This document shows positions 11,699 to 58,781 of a stretch of 64,000 nt of DNA, in pieces. The position numbers and the translations under genes are program-made. How positions within the stretch are numbered: position 1 is the stretch's first letter; every line of letters begins with the position of its first letter. The stretch is from assembly GCA_951804945.1 (NCBI GenBank), contig OX638154.1, positions 62,186,001 through 62,250,000 on the forward strand, given 5' to 3'. Source of the DNA: Podarcis cretensis. Lineage: Eukaryota. The notes under the pieces were generated by a model, which saw only the letters and a list, made by a program, of their open reading frames with translations, searched no databases and was not told the origin of the DNA.

Positions 11699-11851
11699 TG
11701 CAGGTTTAATTTGTCTCACTGTACTAACTAAGTTTATGTCTTGACCTTCAAAATGTTTCTGAACAAGGGAAGATATCTAGTCCTTTGTAGGTGGGAATAT
11801 GCCTATTAATATTTAGCTGTGTAGCAGAAATGTTTGTATAGAAAACAATTA

Positions 11852-12060
11852 CAGTGGTACCTCGGGTTACAGACGCCTCAGGTTACAGACTCCGCTAACC
11901 CAGAAATAGAACTTCGGGTTAAGAACTTTGCTTCAGGATGAGAACAGAAATTGTGCTCCAGTGGCGTGGAGGCAGCAGGAGGCCTCATTAGCTACAGTGG
12001 TGCTTCAGGTTAAGAACGGACCTCTGGAACAAATTAAGTACTTAACCCGAGGTACCACTG
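11852..12060 (+). mobile_element. Tc1/mariner-type MITE (CAGTGGTACC family), copy 1
   Basis: TA TSD; TIR CAGTGGTACCTCGGGTTA. Strand is relative orientation only. Confidence 0.9.
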
Positions 12061-12589
12061 TAAAGCCTAAGGACTGGTTACGTTCCTTAGCATAGTTGCT
12101 GTCAGTTGTTGATTCCCAGAAACATGCCATATCATGTGTGACTAGCTACTGATGAGTGTATTTTGCATTGTATTGGTTCTCTGACTGGAGAGTAATGTTA
12201 GTATGAATCCTGTTCACTCTGGATCTACCCCAGAAATGAGTCGCTGAGGAGGCTAGTTATGGTGGCAGCTGGGATGTTCTGCAAAATTATCAAGTGCAGT
12301 TTTCTCTTATAAAGGATCTAGTAGAACTTGTCAACATAATTACAAGGTCATCATCCATGGAACTGTGAAACTGGTTCATAAGCTTAATGGGTTTTAGCCT
12401 CACACTCCAACGCCACAGTTATAGAGAGTTTCAAAATAAGCTTCTGAGATGTTAGAATCAGTTGTTAAAGGTAAGAAATGTCATTTTACAATACATTTGT
12501 GAGTCTAGCAGCTCTTGGTATCCTGGCCAGGATTTCTCCGATGAATAAGCCACCTTTCTGAAAAATGGGATCCTTCTGGATTAGATGGA

Positions 12590-14056: not shown

Positions 14057-14134
14057 CTTGGCAGGGGGTTGGACTTGATGGCCCTTGTGGTCTCTTCCAA
14101 CTCTATGATTCTATGATTCTATTCTATGATTCTA
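14057..14134 (+). mobile_element. CR1 LINE extreme 3' end, young
   Basis: cttggcagggggttggacttgatggcccttgtggtctcttccaactc followed by (TATGATTC)n. Nearly identical to 47363-47434. Confidence 0.9.
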
Positions 14135-17100
14135 TATGAAGACTATTAATGTTCACTTCCTCTTCAGGAATGAAACATAGAATTATATATCAAGTATTGA
14201 TCCACAAAAAGGATTTTCATTTTATTCATATTTTAAAAGTGCTTCTAATTGAGGCACTGTGGTAATTGAATCTCAACTTTTTTAGAGCCTAAACTTTTTA
14301 GATTCTAACCACAGTTAGCAATCAAAGTGTTTTCTAAAATTATTTTGTTATGTGATACAATAAATCCCACAAAAGGAAGATGAAACAATATGTCTTAATA
14401 TATATGTTACTCTTAAATATTCTTACAGTGGAATGCAGTTTAAGGACATTCTTTAGTTGAACAAAAAGAGAGAGAGAGAGAGAGGAAGATTTCATTACAT
14501 TCAGCACAGTATGAGATTAAGTCAAAGTAGTTTTGCTAATTAAATTCAATTGCCATCCATTAGACCAATGGAATGAGATGAATCTACTATACAGCTGACA
14601 CAGCACAGGTATGCAATTTGGCTAAATGGCTATTTCTAAACGACAGCACACACATTTCTCTGCTTGTTCCCTTTTTTAAGAGTTAGAATTTCTGCACGCA
14701 CTCTGCCCCTGTTTCTAAAAAAGAAGAAAGAAGAAAAAGGAGCCTGCTGAAGGGCAAAGATATCAGTTTAAATAATCAGTCTCAAAGGACCATATGATAG
14801 CAACGAATCAGCTTGAAAGGGTGTACAAATTTAAGCTTACAAGGTTTGGAGTCAGTGAAAGGGAGACATAGGGTTTCTGGTCCCATTGGCTGTTTCTTTT
14901 TTTTATCATTGATTGATATATGTTTTATTTATTAAAGGGGTCTTAATCAGCCCATAAACTTGTTGGGGCCAGGTTGTTTCTGCTGCATTTACCAACCCAG
15001 TATTATTAGCTGACTGTTTGCATAATACTGAGAGAAATGATTTCAAATTCAGATAGTAGGCTGACGTTCTTGGCTTAACTTGATGTTTAAGGACATGCTA
15101 TATTCCAGGATGAGGAGTTTCTTACTCTGTTGAAATGACAGGAATACCATTCAGGCATTGGCCAAGACAAAATTTTGACAGCCAGCAAGCCTATAATGTT
15201 TCCGAGTGCGCAGATTTACACGTCCTGCCAAGATGAAAATTGGCTAAAACCAAAAAGGATATTGGGGATTGACACTTTAGGAAGAAATAACAGACTAGTA
15301 CTTTGCATTGGTTTAAGAAATGTGATCCCTTGAACTGTTTTACTTCCTGGAATCCTATGAGCTAATGTGTAGTAATCAATCCGATTCCATTGTGAATGCT
15401 AACTGCCTGCAACATAGCACAGCGGAAGAAAAGTCAACAGAGTACTTGCACAATACAGCTGGCTATTCCCTACGTTGAAGCTGGATGCTGTGAAGTCCAA
15501 ATGTGCATGCTTGGCCCCATCTCCTTGGAACGTTTGCGGGATGGAAGACTGAACCACTGCATCTACAAAATATGAATGCAATTGAGAGTTATACTGGATT
15601 TTCATGTTACCTATTTTTAGAACACAGCAAAGACTTCAGGGCAAAACTAGCACAATATAGCTGCTGGTGGGGAAAGCCCTAATGAAAGACATTAATTGAA
15701 GGGTGCCATTATTTTATAGCAGTTTTTCTTCGATGCTTTCCCTTGATGTAATTGTTATGCTGATATTTGTTGTTGTTCAGTCATGAATCTTTTGCATGGT
15801 TATTTGCGGCTCACAGCTTGTGTGTAAACCAAACCACAAGCCCAGACTCAGGAGGTACAGCAAACCAAGGCTTGTGGGTTTGTTGCTCCTGGCATGGAGC
15901 AACCTAGAGCAAGGAGGACTTTTCTGCGTCAGCACACTGCTCATTCACTTTAAATCATAGATAAGCAGTAACTATATACTTTAACTTGAAGTGAGAACCA
16001 GGCCTTTGCTGCTCACTGTTTTCCCCGACCCCTCTTCTCTTTCGGAACACTGTTACAAGTTCAGATGAAAACAAGGAACAATATTATACATGAAATGCAA
16101 CAGCAGAATACAGGGGCTGCAATTCTTTATGGCCCTCAGATTTTGCATCCCATTAAGTACTGACACTATGATTAATTTATCTTAAAGGGTTACTTTTTGT
16201 CAAACAGTGGTGGCGATGGCGGTTGTTAACCCATATTCACTAGTGGTTAAGAGTGTGTACAGCATTTATCAAAACTTTCTGCAGCTTCTTTCATCTCATT
16301 AGCATCTCAATCTCTATTCAGTAGTTGATGTCCGTTACAGCAAGAGTGCTCAGTTCTTGTTTTCAATAAGCTGGTTGTAAAATGTCAGACTGTCACTTGC
16401 AATATAAAAAAGCAAAAATGATGGTATTTGAAAAAAATGTTACACCTCATAAAAACAAATTGTAAAGACATGAAAGTGATCTTGGTATGTTTTACTTTTC
16501 AGGACAGTTTAGCACAGCTGCTTTAAATACCAGTTGTCTGGATTCCCACACTTCCCTACCAATGGAGAGGTTTACACAAGCATAATTTAAGTTACAATTA
16601 CCCTAATTAACATCTTATTTGCATAAATACTTGAAAGCAGAGCAACAAAGAAATGCCTTAGAAGCTGAACCCCAGTGGAGAAATGTGTTTTCACTGTGTT
16701 TTGGAAAATATAGGCCATTATGTTTAAATTTTCAGGCATAATAAAATAAACTGAAGTTCTATGGTTAATATTTTTATTACAATTTGGCCATGCCCCTTTT
16801 TACTTACTAGGTGTTAAATTTGGGAGGGAATCTTGCAGGAATTCAAGACACATAAAACTGTCACACTTTTTTTTAAACTATTCAGAGATGACAGAAGCCT
16901 TCTCGTTGATCAAAAATAGCATTAATTTTCTTTTCTTTTCTTTTTGTATGAGCAAAAATACTGTGGGTGCCAGTCTAGTTCCAATCATATTAAGTGGTTG
17001 GACCATGAGAATCATGTTTGAAATCTTTTCTTTCAAAAAATATTCATAGGAACTGAAGCTCAGTATTTAAAATGATAGTACAATGGAGTTGTTTTCTCTT

Positions 17101-38450: not shown

Positions 38451-40417
38451 TATTCTAGATAGCCCCTTGCCCCCAAATACTCCATTGTGCTCTAAAAGTG
38501 CACATATTGTACATTATGTACAACCACATGTTAGTTTTTGATAAGCTTCCTCTGTAAATACATCTTTAATCCATGAAAATTGTGAGATTGTTCTGGTGAA
38601 ATCAATGAATATAGAAATCATTGCCAATCTACTGCAAATCAAGCAGAGCTCCAATTCCCAATTGTTTAACATTAGCAGCAAAGTGACTCCCATCCCTCCC
38701 TGCATTATACTGTTGAAATGAAGAAAGCAGGAGTTTGCCAGGAATGGGTTTTTATGTGGAAGGACATTGAGCTCCATTTAATTCTGGGCTTTAAAACAAA
38801 TTATTGAGCTCAGAATTCAGAAGTATTAAAGGTCCAACTGGTGCATTTTAGGGTTAAAAAACAAAGTAGATCCTGCAAGTAGATTCCATATGCCTAAAGC
38901 CTGCACTCCTCTGAGCTGAGTCTATGCATATAACCAGAGACGTTTCTTCTTAGGATGTCCAGTGCAGTTATTTTATTACTGCAGAATTTTTCAGTTGGAG
39001 AACAAATTAAATTGGCCAGAGTACTGGAAAGTTGTTTCTTTCCCTACAATTACAGAATGACTGAGCAAGGCCACAGAAATAGCAGACATGGACAAATTGA
39101 CCAATATTGTATGTCAAAGAAATTGAATGCATATTCAGGTTGCTTTAGTTGTAAATGGGCTCCATTTATTATCTATTGGAATAATAATTATGTACATGAA
39201 AAATTGGAAAGAGATTGGGTTTTATTATATTCTGATATGTTTTATTTAATAAGACCAGGGTGGGGGGTGGGGTGGGATGCAGAAGTAGCTATGTGCAAGC
39301 CAAGCCACTCAGCTTTGATTGCTGAGAATTCTGAAGCCTGGGAAAAGGTAGAGGATGCTAGGGAATCATAGGCAAACAGGCAGGGAAAGTGGAGCCTCTG
39401 GGCACCTTTTTCTGCCTGTTGTTTATCTGTGCTTATCTTTCCTTTAGTGGCTAATTGCTCTGCTCCTCCTCCTCACAGCTTCTAGATACAATTAGAAGAC
39501 ACAACAAAGAGAGATATGATAAGCAGGAATAAATATGGAGTGCAGAAAGGTGGCCCACAACTGATTTGCTTGCCTGCGATCCCTTCCTGCTTTCTCTGTG
39601 TGTTATTTTTTTCCTTGTGAAATTTGCAAATAAAAAACTAACAATAATAAATAAGGAAATGGGATGCAGCTTCTGCAACTTGCAGCTTGTGGCTTCTTTC
39701 TTGTGGTTTCAGAGCAGGAAGAGAAGAAGGTTGGGCTTGTTGAAAGAGAACAAGTTTTGCACTTTCTTGAGTAGAATGAGTTTTGGAGCTCCTATCCCCA
39801 CAAAACAAGAGGGCGCCTTCAAGGCACAACTGAAACACAACTTGTCAACATTTGTTGTTTTCTTTAGTAATTGTTCTTAGAGCACCAAAACAAAACACAT
39901 ACTTGCTTATGGTGTTGCATTATGCTTCTGTGCTGTCAGGGTCAGAAATGATGTAATTTATTTCACAAGAAGCCTTCCCACTAAACGCAAGCTCAGAAGT
40001 GCTAAATTTAATTAAAAACTTTTATTTTTCAAACAAACAGTTATTATTCCTTCTTACCTTCTGAACTTTAAGACATCTGAGCTGAATAGGACCTGGATAA
40101 AGCAGGGAGAAACTGTTTCTCCTTTCAACAGATGCCTGTTATTACTTTATCTGAAACAAGGACTCTAACCCCCCCCCCCGATGAACAATGCAAGCAAGCA
40201 AAAAGTAAAATAAAAGTTAAATTGGTAAACTGGGGTTTTGTTTTTAAATTCAAGCAGCTATAAAAAGCCTTGAATTTGTTAAGAATTTGCTGTTTTGCTG
40301 TGGAAGTAATTACAAGTCAATAGCATGTGTCATTGTAAAGTTAGCCACTATATTAGCAGTTTGGGTTTTTTATTGGTTCAGATATGACTAAGCAGGATTA
40401 GTACATGAGAACCTTAT

Positions 40418-41242
40418 TGTCAGAGCTGCCCAAGGTCCCAGCTCACAAAGGACCAACGCCAGTTCTTACTATATACAAAAGTCTTTATTAAGGTTCAGTT
40501 TCCATTTCAAAGCCGCGGCGTGCAGCTCTTCGTCTCAACCCTAGACCGCTGAAGCTCCATCTGAATCTCCTCCCCCTCGACACCAGTTCAAGACCCTAGC
40601 CTTGCTCCACCTCCTCCTCTGCTCCTTTCTCCTCTGGGTCCTTCTGCCCGCTGGGGTGTCGCCCTTTCTGGACTCTTCTGATGCTGATTCCCCGGATTCT
40701 TCCCCCTGTTTCCGGCGTGCTTTAGGACCTGGCTCCCAATCCAACCTCCCTGCTGTCCCGCGCTCCTGTACATTTGAACGTGGCGCGCGCCCAGCCAGCA
40801 ACCTTCCTCCTGACCGTTACACTGCTCCTGTCACTGCTTCCCCCTTCGGGGGGGGGTTGGCTGGGTCTGACTTCCCCTCCGTTTCCTCACTCAGCGATAG
40901 GGGCGTGGTCAGCCCTGCCTCATCTTCTCTCCCCACTGGAGGGGAAGCCGGCCCTGACACATGGAACTCTTCCCCTCCCTGCTACGCCCTGGTGGGGAAG
41001 CTGGTCCCGATCTCCAGCTGCTGCTTTGGGAGTCGCCGCTGGCCCCTTGCTTCTGGTGCGTCCTTCCCAGGACCCCCCTTGCCCTGGCCATCGGTGCCCC
41101 CTTCTGGGAATCTTCCGAATCGCTGGAGAAGCTCATGGAATCTCTCGGCCCACTGTCATACTCCCCTACGCTGCCCTCGGATTGTTCCCCTTCGCTCTCC
41201 GCTTCCTCTCTCCCCTGTGCCTCTGCTCCTGAACCCCTGACA
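40418..41242 (-). mobile_element. Solo LTR, probably Gypsy-type, 825 bp, young
   Basis: Termini TGTCAG...CTGACA. Exact 5-bp TSD CTTAT at 40413-40417 and 41243-41247. Minus-strand AATAAA at 40484-40489, ~65 bp from the end. GC- and CpG-rich relative to flanks. Superfamily is inferred. Confidence 0.88.
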
Positions 41243-41909
41243 CTTATGAAAAATAGAAGTGATAAAAGCAATTTAACTGTCAGTATATTTGTGTTGTGGT
41301 TTTGCTATGTGAAACATAATTGCCTGGCAATGGAAAGGACACTGAGGATGGATTCCCCCTTCCACCCCCACTTATTTCTGTGTCAGTAGCCGTGGAAGAT
41401 TATTTCACTCTTTGGAAGGGATAAATACAACAGATTAAAATTATATTTAAAATTATGCAATGAAAATTTGCAGCTGTGTTCTTCACTGGCACATGTGTGT
41501 GCAAAGGCAGAAGAAACTAAAGATCAAAAATATTATTGAAAGTTCCTTCCCACTTTTGTGGACATTATGGTCACTCATGGTAAAGTCTGTGGTTCAGAGC
41601 TCTTACTCTGAAACTTATTGTGGTTTCAGCCACTGAATCAGCAATTCAGCTGCATCAACTTCAGTCTTGCTGATTTCAGTGTGCATATCAGAATATAAGA
41701 TTGCAGTTTTAGTGAGGAGAAGCCACTGACCCGTATAAACTATGGACATTTTAGGGAGATGAGTAGATAGAAGTACTAAAAGACTATCAGCTGAAATAAA
41801 GCATAAGAATTAGTGCCATGATTTAGATATTCCCACTGATGTCATACACATTTTTCATCTTCCTTCCATTGTATGTGATAACTCTTTGTTTGCTGTGACT
41901 TTGGCTAGT

Positions 41910-45200: not shown

Positions 45201-46447
45201 AAGTCTTAGTTTACAGGAGGCCACCGCACGGGGTCTCATGAAGCCCAGCAAGCTTCTTCATGTGGTCTGCCTGGCAATGAGATGATTTAATAATTTGTGT
45301 GCCCATTCTAAAGAGGTTTGGCTGCTTACCATCCAGCCTGCCCTCAGGGGTGATTTACTTAACCATATGCTGCCATAGAAGCAGCTGCATTTGATTGCAT
45401 CTACCAAACTCTGAGGTTTATCCGCCACACAGCTGAAGCCTTTCTCTTTTATCTGCCACTTCCCTTGGCTGTATGCCCCTGAAATCATTTGTGTCTAAAA
45501 GGAGGACAGAGAAAACTTTTAGCATGTAGTTGGGTGTTGACAATCTGAAATGATGAATTGATCCTCTGAGAATCCATAGGCAATTTGCTGAAGCAACAGT
45601 AATAAAAATCTTGACATTGCTCATTGCTTTCTTGCTGATACTGTCTGTTGGTGAATCTGTATTGCATGTGCTATAATCAACACTGAAAATTCAAACCATC
45701 TCAGTAGCTCTCAATATGCAATTGACTTGACTACTATTGTGGACTGACTATATAAGCCTATTTTTTTCATTCATGGGTAGTAATTTATTTCTCTTTTTAG
45801 CCTGTCCCATCTCAAAGTCTATGTCTGGATAATAATGCCTTATATATAAAACACAGAATTTACAATATGAAACAAAATCTTGACTGAATAAATATACATG
45901 AGCGTCCACATAGTATAAGAATTTATTATAAATAATTGCCATGTTGAATAAGAGCAATGGTTCATCTAGTTCATTAACGTCTACTTTGATTGGCAACAGC
46001 AAAGAAATCTCAAAGAGGGTTTAGCCATATAGATGGATCTTTTCTGCCACTGACCTTTGGTCCTTTCTCATTATAACTTAGTGCAATAGTGTTTATGTTT
46101 AATAATGAATACATTGTTATTTCTCATAAAATTCTGACAGGATTTCCCCATTATGATATCAATTTGAATTTTGTAGGCTGTATTCCCATGATTTGGTATA
46201 TATACATTACTGTTTGATATATTCTTCAACAGCAATATGAAGGGTTAGGAAAGGAGGTGAATTGTTGTTTGCTAAGATCTAGATCTGTAACCTCTTGACC
46301 TTCTGATCTCTTCTTATCCTGTCCAGATGGAAATTCTCGATGTCAGCTGCCCTATTTGTGGATGTAAGATTGGCACATTTCCTCTTTCTCTTTTCCCTTC
46401 CAGCACCTGAAAAGACTGGTGTCATATGATGATTCTTAATAGTTATA

Positions 46448-46688
46448 CAGTGGTACGTCAGGTTACATACGCTTCAGGTTACATACACTTCAGGTTACAG
46501 ACTCCGCTAACTCAGAAATAGTGCTTCAGGTTAAGAATTTTGCTTCATGATGAGAACAGAAATCGGGCTCCAGCGGCCCGGCGGCAGCAGAAGACCCCAT
46601 TAGCTAAAGTGGTGCTTCAGGTTAAGAACAGTTTCAGGTTAAGTACGACCTCCGGAACGAATTAAGTACTTAACCTGAGGTACCACTG
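46448..46688 (+). mobile_element. Tc1/mariner-type MITE (CAGTGGTACC family), copy 4
   Basis: TA TSD, TIRs present, body aligns with the other copies. Confidence 0.9.
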
Positions 46689-47362
46689 TAATCCAATCTG
46701 TGTATTATACAAAATACTAGACCTTCTGGTTTGGGGTTATTCGGGGGGGGGGGGGTGTTCAGTACAATCTGTCGATTGGCACAGTGATCATCCAGACTTT
46801 TGGCTAAAGGGGGATGCCATTTAATAAATTTTGAATTAGACTGTGGGATACCAACCTTTGCCCCATGGATACATATGGATTTTTGCTGGGGGTGACAGGC
46901 CTTGTGGTCACTTTTCCGCCCCCTCCTCCAAGAAACACACTTCCCTTTTACAAAGGAACTGGAAATCCAGCTGGATCCAGCTGCTGGATCCAGTAAAATC
47001 AATCTGAGGCTTAGAAAGCACAGGGAGATGAAATAGTAAGTGTGAAAGAGTATCATTTTTCCATCTTTTTTCTTCATCTCAGTGTACTTTTCAAGGGAGA
47101 AAAAGGAACCCTTACCATTTCAGGACCAAGCAGGCAGTGAGTGCAGGGGTAGGGGGAGACTCAAAGCTTTCACGGGTGCCATGGGAAGACCTCAAGGGCA
47201 TCATTGCACTCATGGATGTCACAATGGCAATTGCTGAAATAAACTGCACAGGAAATATACCCTATGTGTCAATAATGGGAATTTTGGATTATTGTAGCTC
47301 AGACAATGGGGATACTGTACTGTTAATTATTTAATCATTTAAAATGATACTTCAACATAATG

Positions 47363-47434
47363 TTTCCTGCTTGGCAGGGGGTTGGACTCGATGGCCCTTG
47401 TGGTCTCTTCCAATTCTATGATTCTATGATTCTA
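47363..47434 (+). mobile_element. CR1 LINE extreme 3' end, young
   Basis: ttcctgcttggcagggggttggactcgatggcccttgtggtctcttcc followed by (ATTCTATG)n. Confidence 0.9.
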
Positions 47435-48438
47435 ATAATAGTTAAGATATGAATTAATGACACTTAATATATACCCTAAATTAGGAGAGAACTGTGGCAC
47501 ATACAGTGCTTTTCATATACTCATTGCATTTGAAATAGTCTCCAAAGCTACCTAATTTCTGGCCAGTGTGATACCATATATCTAAAGCATCCCAGACAGA
47601 TGTCTCTCCGACATTTTCTTGAGTGTCTTTGAGAGAGGAAATCCCATAGTTGCTGTAGGCAGGTTTTTTTCTTCATTGATTGACAGTTTTTTATGATTTT
47701 GGAGGACTTTTAAAAGTTATCCTAAAATTTAAAATCATTGCTTCTTGTCCTTTCTTAACACTGAACATGATCTCCCAAATGATGTCTTACCAGTGCTGAG
47801 TAGAAAAATGGTATAATTTCCCATGTGACTGCTAATTCATCCTAAAATGGCACAATTCTTCTATGCTATAGACACAGCTGGTGTCACAGCATCTCTCATC
47901 TCTTCATCTTACTTTTCCACAATTACTACTAGTATCTGCTGTAAAAAATGGGTGGTTAATAATTTCATGGTATAGGCAGTGCTTGCTAGATAACTGTTTG
48001 TGAAGCTTGCAAATAGGAATCAAAGCAATATAGGAATATCAAAGCAATATAGGAATCAATCCTAAAGCAGCACACACACACTGCTAAGTCTCCTTAACCT
48101 TAATGAGAACTGCCAATGTTTATATCTTGTTCAAAACCACATAGACTTTGATAGATCAGGGTTCATCCTCTGCTGATTTTTTATTTATTTTATTTTCCTC
48201 ACCCTCAATTGTAAACACTGTCCCCTAAACCATCAAGTTAAAAGATGCACCCTATTAACCCGGTCATGAATGCTTGAAAAGCTTAACTTGCCTGTTAAAA
48301 ATGTCTACTAGCCCATACCTAATTGTGTAAAACAGCAAGTGGATAGGGGGAGAAATACCCTGCTAGTTTAAATGGACGAGAATGAGTTGCTTCAAAAATT
48401 AGGCAGGATGCAATTTTTCCAGAAAGTGCAGTATCATA

Positions 48439-48621
48439 GGGACGCAGGTGGCGCTGTGGGTTAAAGCCTCAGCTCCTAGGACTTGCCGATCGAAAGGTCG
48501 GCGGTTCGAATCCCTGCGGCGGGGTGCGCTCCCGCTGCTCGGTCCCAGCGCCTGCCAACCTAGCATTTCGAAAGCACCTCCGGGTGCAAGTAGATAAATA
48601 GGGACCGCTTACCAGCGGGAA
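48439..48621 (+). mobile_element. Sauria SINE, 3'-truncated first unit of a head-to-tail dimer
   Basis: gggacgcaggtggcgctgtgggttaaa head and B box ggttcgaatcc; stops at accagcgggaa. Confidence 0.9.
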
Positions 48622-48622
48622 T

Positions 48623-48991
48623 GGGACGCAGGTGGCGCTGTGGGTTAAAGCCTCAACGCCTAGGGCTTGCCGATCGAAAGGTCGGCGGTTCAAATCCCTG
48701 CGGCGGGGTGCGCTCCCGCTGCTCGGTCCCAGCGCCTGCCAACCTAGCAGTTCAAAAGCACCTCCGGGTGCAAGTAGATAAATAGGGACCGCTTACCAGC
48801 GGGAAGGTAAACGGCGTTTCCGTGTGCGGCTCTGGCTCGCCAGAGCAGCGATGTCACGCTGGCCACGTGACCCGGAAGTGTCTCCGGACAGCGCTGGCCC
48901 CTGGCCTCTTAAGTGAGATGGGCGCACAACCCCAGAGTCTGTCAAGACTGGCCCGTACGGGCAGGGGTACCTTTACCTTTACCTTTACCTT
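48623..48991 (+). mobile_element. Sauria SINE, full length
   Basis: tRNA-like head, body, (ACCTTT)n tail; nearly identical to 57851-58216. Confidence 0.95.
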
Positions 48992-57850: not shown

Positions 57851-58216
57851 GGGACGCAGGTGGCGCTGTGGGTTAAAGCCTCAGTGCCTAGGGCTTGCCG
57901 ATCGAAAGGTCGGCGGTTCGAATCCCTGCGGCGGGGTGCGCTCCCGCTGCTCGGTCCCCAGCGCCTGCCAACCTAGCAGTTCGAAAGCACCTCCGGGTGC
58001 AAGTAGATAAATAGGGACCGCTTACCAGCGGGAAGGTAAACGGCGTTTCCGTGTGCGGCTCTGGCTCGCCAGATGCAGCTTTGTCACGCTGGCCACGTGA
58101 CCCGGAAGTGTCTCCGGACAGCGCTGGCCCCTGGCCTCTTAAGTGAGATGGGCGCACAACCCCAGAGTCTGTCAAGACTGGCCCGTACGGGCAGGGGTAC
58201 CTTTACCTTTACCTTT
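57851..58216 (+). mobile_element. Sauria SINE, full length, young
   Basis: CpG-intact head and body, (ACCTTT)n tail. Confidence 0.95.
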
Positions 58217-58376
58217 ATTTATCTACTTGCACTTAGGGGTGCTTTCGAACTGCTAGGTGGGCAGGAGCTGGGACCGAAAGACGGGAGCTCACCCCGCCGC
58301 GGGGATTCGAACCGCCGACCATACAATTGGCAAGTCCTAGGCACTGAGGTTTTACCCACAGCGCCACCCGCGTCCC
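58217..58376 (-). mobile_element. Sauria SINE 5' half, different variant, inverted
   Basis: Minus strand gggacgcgggtggcgctgtgggtaaaacctcagtgcctagg...gtgcaagtagataaata, abutting the tail of the plus-strand copy. Confidence 0.9.
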
Positions 58377-58781
58377 TACCTAGGCCAATATGTTGTCGTT
58401 ATTTCATTTATAATAAAAGCAGCTAAGACAGTTTTTAAAGCAGTACAAAACACACATACAAAAAAGAGCTTTAAAAACAGTGGGATAAACACTTAAGGCA
58501 GAGACCTTTTCATCTACCTGGAAAGTTTATGAACTTTGACAACCTAGGTAGCATATTTATATAGAGAAAGTTGTTGGAGACTACTGGTATTAAATTAATG
58601 ACCTTGCTGGTATGAGTGTCTTTCATACAAAATAATCTTCATTTTAAAAAATCCAGAATAATTTCAGAGCTGTGTATCTTTCTGAGATGAAAATGCTCAT
58701 TTTCATCCTTTTGGGTCAAGACTTGGGTTGAGAAGACAGAAATAATTTCTGGAAACCAGCAGTGCTTTGTCTCTTTTATAA

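Follow-up and report, generated by a model that had tools for sequence, protein, structure and literature searches.

The 64-kb stretch of Podarcis cretensis DNA analysed here (64,000 nucleotides, hereafter the window) carries a solo LTR of the Ty3/Gypsy type on the minus strand at 40418..41242. The LTR is 825 bp long, runs from TGTCA to TGACA and is flanked on the same strand by the TSD ATAAG on its 5' side (41243..41247), which is matched by the ATAAG on its 3' side (40413..40417). The same LTR bounds gag-pol elements elsewhere in the genome, and a 5-bp TSD was found at 27 of the 30 close LTR loci that were fetched. A search of the genome with the LTR returned 3235 candidates and the 40 that were scored had 95-100% identity; as judged from these sequences the family is young and high-copy. 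Minus-strand features within the LTR include a relic of the final 232 codons of Pol, which are LTR-coded and form the tail of integrase (40541..41241), a putative promoter overlapping the coding tail and formed by a reverse CCAAT-like word and a TAAAG word (40720..40741), and an AATAAA poly(A) signal (40484..40489). The signal is located about 50 nt past the Pol stop, and the genomic RNA would include the entire tail. The relic itself contains two copies of the peptide SGPASPP (40990..41010 and 40937..40957) and a terminal Arg-rich motif, RRTQRRKEQRRRWSKARVLNWC (40580..40645). On the plus strand there is an antisense open frame of 231 codons (40545..41240), which was judged to be a by-product.

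A sequence-only reading of this DNA had proposed that the solo LTR encodes a protein. Much of what it described is in place, including the minus-strand frame that opens at the second base of the LTR and reads VRGSGAEAQG..., both SGPASPP copies with the codons it listed, and the ORF at 40801-40541 ending in ...DSDGASAV*. The TAA it reported at 40819-40817 is also present, although it falls outside the Pol frame and is met only through a shifted reading. Its explanation of the break by a single base missing from a homopolymer gave way to three short indels, near 40980, 40856 and 40790, when the window copy was compared with uninterrupted copies. Two other loci of the 30 have the break near 40980 as well, which makes a single read error an unlikely cause. 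Two 7-nt homopolymer runs at approximately 264 and 384 of the LTR (window ~40980 and ~40856) attract most frameshifts, which occurred there in 9 and 13 of the 41 copies of the window's subfamily respectively and could be due to replication slippage or assembly error. The window copy would be a non-coding relic of LTR-LTR recombination. Its frame lacks a separate start at the LTR edge, and no protein product is expected from it because no upstream frame feeds it and the copy is also broken.

A Pfam scan of the LTR peptide and of the antisense peptide gave no match, a protein atlas search gave no usable match, and no Pfam match above the cut-off was obtained for the window's 26 other long stop-free frames. 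Contigs from four runs presumed to be RNA covered the stretch in fragments, which has no bearing on transcription. Other interspersed repeats in the window were located at 14057-14140, 47370-47453, 48439-48805 and 57851-58426, including a 184-bp head-to-tail duplication.

In full-length relatives the frame found in U3 is the end of Pol and not an extra gene, because it is continuous with Pol to the stop in the 3' LTR. These elements have one uninterrupted Pol frame encoding protease, RT, RNase H, integrase, a degenerate chromodomain and a 155-residue spacer, after which the PPT is read in frame as GGFEGG and the LTR supplies a further 210-233 codons. A search with the chromodomain region found open frames of up to 1591 codons. 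Twenty loci, picked for long open frames, were fetched from 150 chromodomain-region matches, and six of these twenty were open without a stop to the 3' LTR stop, five over 1563-1591 codons and one over 1433, with Pfam domains in the order PR, RT, RH, IN and SH3. One further copy was open from the integrase core to the LTR stop. At one locus the 5' LTR was followed by gag (Retrotrans_gag and Ty3 capsid in Pfam, with a zinc-knuckle match below cut-off) and then by pol in a different frame. The nearest named proteins were those of Podarcis muralis in UniRef, which have the tail on Pol at 53-56% identity, the Pol-plus-tail protein being already present there as an automatic prediction.

The element has gag followed by PR-RT-RH-IN, TG...CA LTRs, a short TSD and a PPT before the 3' LTR, as in Ty3/Gypsy elements (Metaviridae), and is probably a chromovirus of the sushi-like type, its Pol having been compared pairwise among the lizard families only. 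No env gene is located between integrase and the LTR and Pol itself fills the interval. The chromodomain remnant, about 200 codons upstream of the PPT, matched Pfam Chromo with an E of 0.0078 in the window's family, which is below the cut-off that the sister families pass. Eight of its nine weak matches in a PDB search (E 0.3-1) were chromodomain proteins.

The sequence-only reading had taken the U3 frame for an extra ORF of the nef or sag type and suggested checking whether it starts upstream of the PPT. The frame does come from upstream, although as Pol running on through the PPT rather than as a separate ORF, and the window's family has no ORF separate from pol of the retroviral accessory kind. 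That the U3 peptide is an accessory protein in its own right, made from an RNA that is spliced or starts internally or else cleaved off Pol by the protease, is a very improbable reading. In-frame Met codons do occur inside the tail and proteolytic release is compatible with the sequence, but uninterrupted copies have no stop or change of phase between Pol and tail and the presumed promoter is located near the end of the frame.

The 84 distinct LTRs were divided into six subfamilies with 81-92% mutual identity, and 41 of the 84, across the six subfamilies, were open to the same stop. Among the 30 close copies, 12 were open over 232-234 codons from LTR base 2, as had been predicted for the family, while only 13 of the 41 LTRs of the window's own subfamily were open. 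The dN/dS between the six subfamilies, calculated with one natural copy per subfamily and pooled over 15 non-independent pairs, was 0.31 for the Pol frame, compared to 1.05-1.37 for four other frames, while the antisense frame gave 0.40. A codon model fitted by maximum likelihood gave an omega of 0.41 (LRT against 1 of 49.2, p 2e-12). Private mutations served as a neutral control and comprised 71 synonymous and 155 other changes, or about 0.66 by the same counting, while 5'-3' LTR pairs had 8 synonymous and 22 other changes. Changes between subfamilies were 100 synonymous and 118 non-synonymous compared to the 71 and 155 private changes (Fisher p 0.002, or 0.008 without stops).

Synonymous variation was seen at 49 of 110 invariant degenerate residues, and W, C, LxW and FxGF residues were kept while their codons differed synonymously. 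Typical coding lengths of the subfamilies were 651 and 585 nt, both of them in frame and a multiple of three apart, whereas the lengths after the stop (171, 173 and 174 nt) followed no such rule. The LTR-coded frame is under purifying selection, and the claim that U3 is protein-coding, selected and acidic then basic was borne out for the LTR family of the window. Constraint on the tail was weaker than on RT, integrase and the chromodomain, where omega was mostly 0.04-0.13, and U3 carries DNA-level constraints too.

Base composition offers another explanation of the open frame, which could be a by-product of a purine-rich, T-poor U3 (T is approximately 11% of the region), and a related proposal is that the antisense frame is the functional one. 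Both are already largely refuted and together retain next to no probability. Any of three frames was open by chance in 1-4% of shuffles, but a given frame was open by composition alone in only 0.3-1% of the dinucleotide shuffles (P = 0.003-0.010), and the frame found open in each of the six subfamilies, with a low omega, is specifically that of Pol. The antisense frame, with its 231 open codons and low omega, has its third positions in common with the Pol frame, stays open in 13.5% of synonymous recodings of the latter, and, among the 13 intact copies belonging to subfamilies 4-6, is interrupted in 12 by one or two stops; it was rejected as a functional frame.

The SGPASPP repeat, which had been put forward as evidence of selection, was rejected as a selected feature. 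The GPASPP core of the first copy, or a one-residue variant, was found in all six subfamily representatives, and the second copy in only three of the six. The second copy is inside the 40-codon interval with the weakest constraint, where 34 changes were non-synonymous and 17 synonymous. The repeat argument was incidental, though the coding conclusion drawn from it is correct.

Sister families were found by a Pfam Chromo search of the genome and 18 elements were fetched. In 11 of these Pol reads 100-118 codons into the 3' LTR, and the LTR-coded part is again acidic then basic. The continuous frame from protease to the 3' LTR stop and the purifying selection on it are accompanied by the same layout in sister families. 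Ten pairs from one sister family had a dN/dS of 0.16-0.36, compared to 0.81-2.5 when the frame was shifted. The Pol end of this sister family could be aligned over 27 columns with the Arg-rich LxW terminus of the window's family (hhalign probability 56.8, E 1e-4), Pol being approximately 55% identical between the two. A third family (L142, L155) has gag-pol in one frame, an intact chromodomain and 117 codons in the LTR. It is without the FxGF motif described below, and its Pol end has an RRSARL word, which we take to resemble the nucleosome acidic-patch motif of HMGN. Among the best 150 matches of a representative-protein search, two matched the LTR-coded tail and the great majority only the integrase and chromodomain region; the search was dominated by integrase columns and therefore does not bound the range of the tail.

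At the level of single copies the frame was often lost. Indels were frameshifting in 21 of 29 cases and multiples of three in 8, contrary to the enrichment in multiples of three that had been expected. The phase (register) test on unselected full-length copies was flat (8/7/11 of 26 and 8/5/8 of 21), and many copies were frameshifted in the spacer or the tail. Therefore, either loss of the tail is tolerated per copy or assembly errors in G runs are common.

Such broken copies would also be expected if the tail were translated but mostly a passive extension, with selection keeping only an open frame and the charge pattern, for example through a stop near the poly(A) site that avoids nonsense-mediated decay or through U3 promoter signals. 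The position of the stop ahead of AATAAA, an omega of just 0.3-0.4 and a tail length that varies by family (100, 117 and 232 codons) are in keeping with this, and still we regard it as improbable. Specific residues were kept amid synonymous codon change, the end motif can be aligned between families as far apart as noted above, and in the window's family gag ends far upstream in another frame, such that most ribosomes would leave a long 3' UTR in any case.

A conserved block directly after the chromodomain is upstream of the LTR and hence absent from the window. Its conservation equals that of the chromodomain, with 12-13 of every 20 residues invariant, and in the window's family it consists of a Phe-ended hydrophobic stretch, a linker of eight Ser/Thr-rich residues with no Asp or Glu, FxGF and then an acidic run. 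A conserved F-x-x-[YW]-L-F is located ahead of the linker, and a helix was placed at residues 59-67 in a low-confidence model. The motif occurs once in the window's family, with an imperfect consensus, and twice in a sister family, with acidic linkers. The anatomy recalls the TIM as outlined in the available portions of PMC9987994, PMC10854676 and 10.1101/624023, namely a helix, an acidic phosphorylatable linker of 8-16 residues and an FxGF that is essential for binding of LEDGF and HRP2.

The motif scan was designed with TIMs in mind and was not blind, and the TIM definition was taken from reviews. The pattern F-x8/9-FxGF was confined to the position right after the chromodomain, as neither the 1.27 million six-frame residues of the fetched loci nor the window gave any further match. 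Among 153 proteins it was present in 7, each of them a close relative. FxGF was invariant in 17 of 17 aligned motifs, themselves picked by that pattern. The same scan, run as a control, recovered the FxGF site from 115 of 120 IWS1 proteins and from none of 120 PSIP1 proteins, and a profile built from the retrotransposon motifs alone landed on the IWS1 FxGF site in 115 of 120. This control was moved to database IWS1 proteins, as no host IWS1 motif was found within 20 kb upstream of the TND exon. The genome has LEDGF-domain exons at two loci. The published core D/E-x-E-x-F-x-G-F, as given in the accessible part of PMC8022399, was present at 7 of 12 sister-family loci and absent from the window's family, and the motif profile run against PDB gave chance matches only and no known TIM complex. 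On this sequence evidence, mimicry of a TIM by the motif, with binding to the LEDGF or HRP2 TND/IBD, has slightly better than even chances in the sister family, while in the window's family it is a possibility that falls somewhat short of even.

Taken together, the solo LTR in the window very probably comes from a lizard Ty3/Gypsy element in which Pol continues through the PPT and 232 codons into U3, these codons being the selected end of a predicted-disordered integrase tail of ~390 residues that is likely a chromatin tether acting via short motifs. Disorder of the tail is predicted from composition and from a single-sequence model that was low-confidence throughout (pLDDT 42) and is therefore no proof of disorder. 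By analogy with Ty3/Gypsy biology, Gag-Pol would be made by frameshifting on a full-length RNA that includes U3 and R, and the protease would free integrase with the tail still attached as a long flexible arm. The acidic Ser/Gly stretch would be the flexible part of this arm, the helix-linker-FxGF motif would likely dock on LEDGF/HRP2, probably helped by phosphorylation of the Ser/Thr linker, and the integration complex would likely be tethered to chromatin through such short motifs. The chances are about equal for and against the LTR-coded Arg-rich end being an NLS or a nucleosome/DNA anchor with the acidic Ser/Gly stretch as its flexible arm. A wider proposal, which we put forward tentatively and as rather less than an even prospect, is that in this lizard clade a decaying chromodomain may have been replaced in chromatin targeting by a long, part-LTR-coded integrase tail mimicking the LEDGF/HRP2-binding TIM, with one motif in the window's family and two in the sister family. 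If true, a retrotransposon has arrived at the lentiviral host tether via short-linear-motif mimicry.

The best-scoring LTR matches of the window's subfamily were dispersed along chromosomes, only one of the 40 being less than 1 Mb from an end, and CRM-like centromere targeting was set aside as improbable for this subfamily. Of the best-scoring matches of the internal (chromodomain) region, 58 of 149 were less than 1 Mb from the end of a chromosome, with both ends represented, after one on an unplaced contig was left out. This is an approximately 15-fold excess over the 3.8 expected and suggests that full-length copies were retained or locally amplified at the ends rather than targeted to them. 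At two loci (L044 and L047) the sequence that normally comes after the 5' LTR directly follows the 3' LTR, which suggests tandem LTR-internal-LTR arrays near a chromosome end. An inverted LTR of another subfamily (90% identical) was located 150 bp past a full-length element at L031:7187-8012. Four of 30 LTRs (L011, L013, L027 and L030) had a CATAC insertion site in common within a short repeat, representing either a hot spot or an amplified nested unit, and a similar short repeat occurs several times in the window, for example at 11842-12062 and 46438-46711. Further LTR copies were located within tandem repeats of (ATT)n or GTATC.

Candidate LTR copies with former integrase coding sequence in U3 number in the thousands in this genome, and promoter and protein therefore evolve on the same bases of a vertebrate LTR. 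A literature search, which lay outside Repbase/Dfam annotations and most subscription papers, returned no account of a U3-coded Pol tail or of the FxGF motif in vertebrate Gypsy elements.

HIV nef and MMTV sag are separate genes overlapping U3 of the 3' LTR. The lizard element is like them in having coding sequence over U3 of the 3' LTR, and unlike them in that the sequence is the end of Pol. The premise of the sequence-only reading that Gypsy LTRs are non-coding has a published exception in plant chromoviruses, as Pol reading into the 3' LTR is established for CRM group A and for Beetle and Bingo of Beta vulgaris in the available text of PMC3059260 and PMC3605345. In these elements too the ORF of the polyprotein passes the PPT and ends within the 3' LTR, and a targeting function has been proposed for the C-terminus of integrase. 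The lizard element is like CRM in layout and is not a CRM member, because its host differs and its chromodomain is upstream of the PPT, rather than a CR motif in its place downstream as in the CRM elements of those accounts. The LTR-coded part here is a tail of 232 residues passing from acidic to basic, which sets it apart from the CR motif as described there, and the dispersion of its LTR matches is a further difference.

Vertebrate sushi-type chromoviruses, as far as the accessible part of PMC3601003 describes them, have in common with the lizard element the order PR-RT-RH-IN-chromodomain, a 5' LTR end that fits TGTYANR and an AATAAA near the LTR end. The lizard element differs in its degenerate chromodomain (Pfam E 0.008), a 3' end with one mismatch to CNTNACA and the ~390 residues past the chromodomain. 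The block after the chromodomain is similar to the TIM/IBM of IWS1, MLL1, JPO2, POGZ and JIL-1, as portrayed in the available sections of PMC9987994, PMC8022399, PMC10854676 and 10.1101/624023, with a putative Phe-ended hydrophobic helix, an acidic or Ser/Thr linker of 8-9 residues and FxGF, in tandem in the sister family. Unlike in those proteins, the motif is located on a retrotransposon integrase, the linker of the window's family has no acidic residue before FxGF, and the element is a putative binder.

If the motif works, the arrangement would be like that of lentiviral integrase and LEDGF, in which an H3K36me reader is the chromatin tether of integrase according to the portions available of PMC9987994 and PMC6382798. 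HIV integrase contacts LEDGF via a pre-formed structured surface and not a linear motif, as stated in the available part of PMC6382798, whereas the lizard element would rely on short-linear-motif mimicry. Should FxGF bind LEDGF/HRP2, a non-lentiviral integrase would be placed on this tether via a different structural route, and insertion-site choice by animal chromoviruses, which is poorly known, would be open to a direct test.
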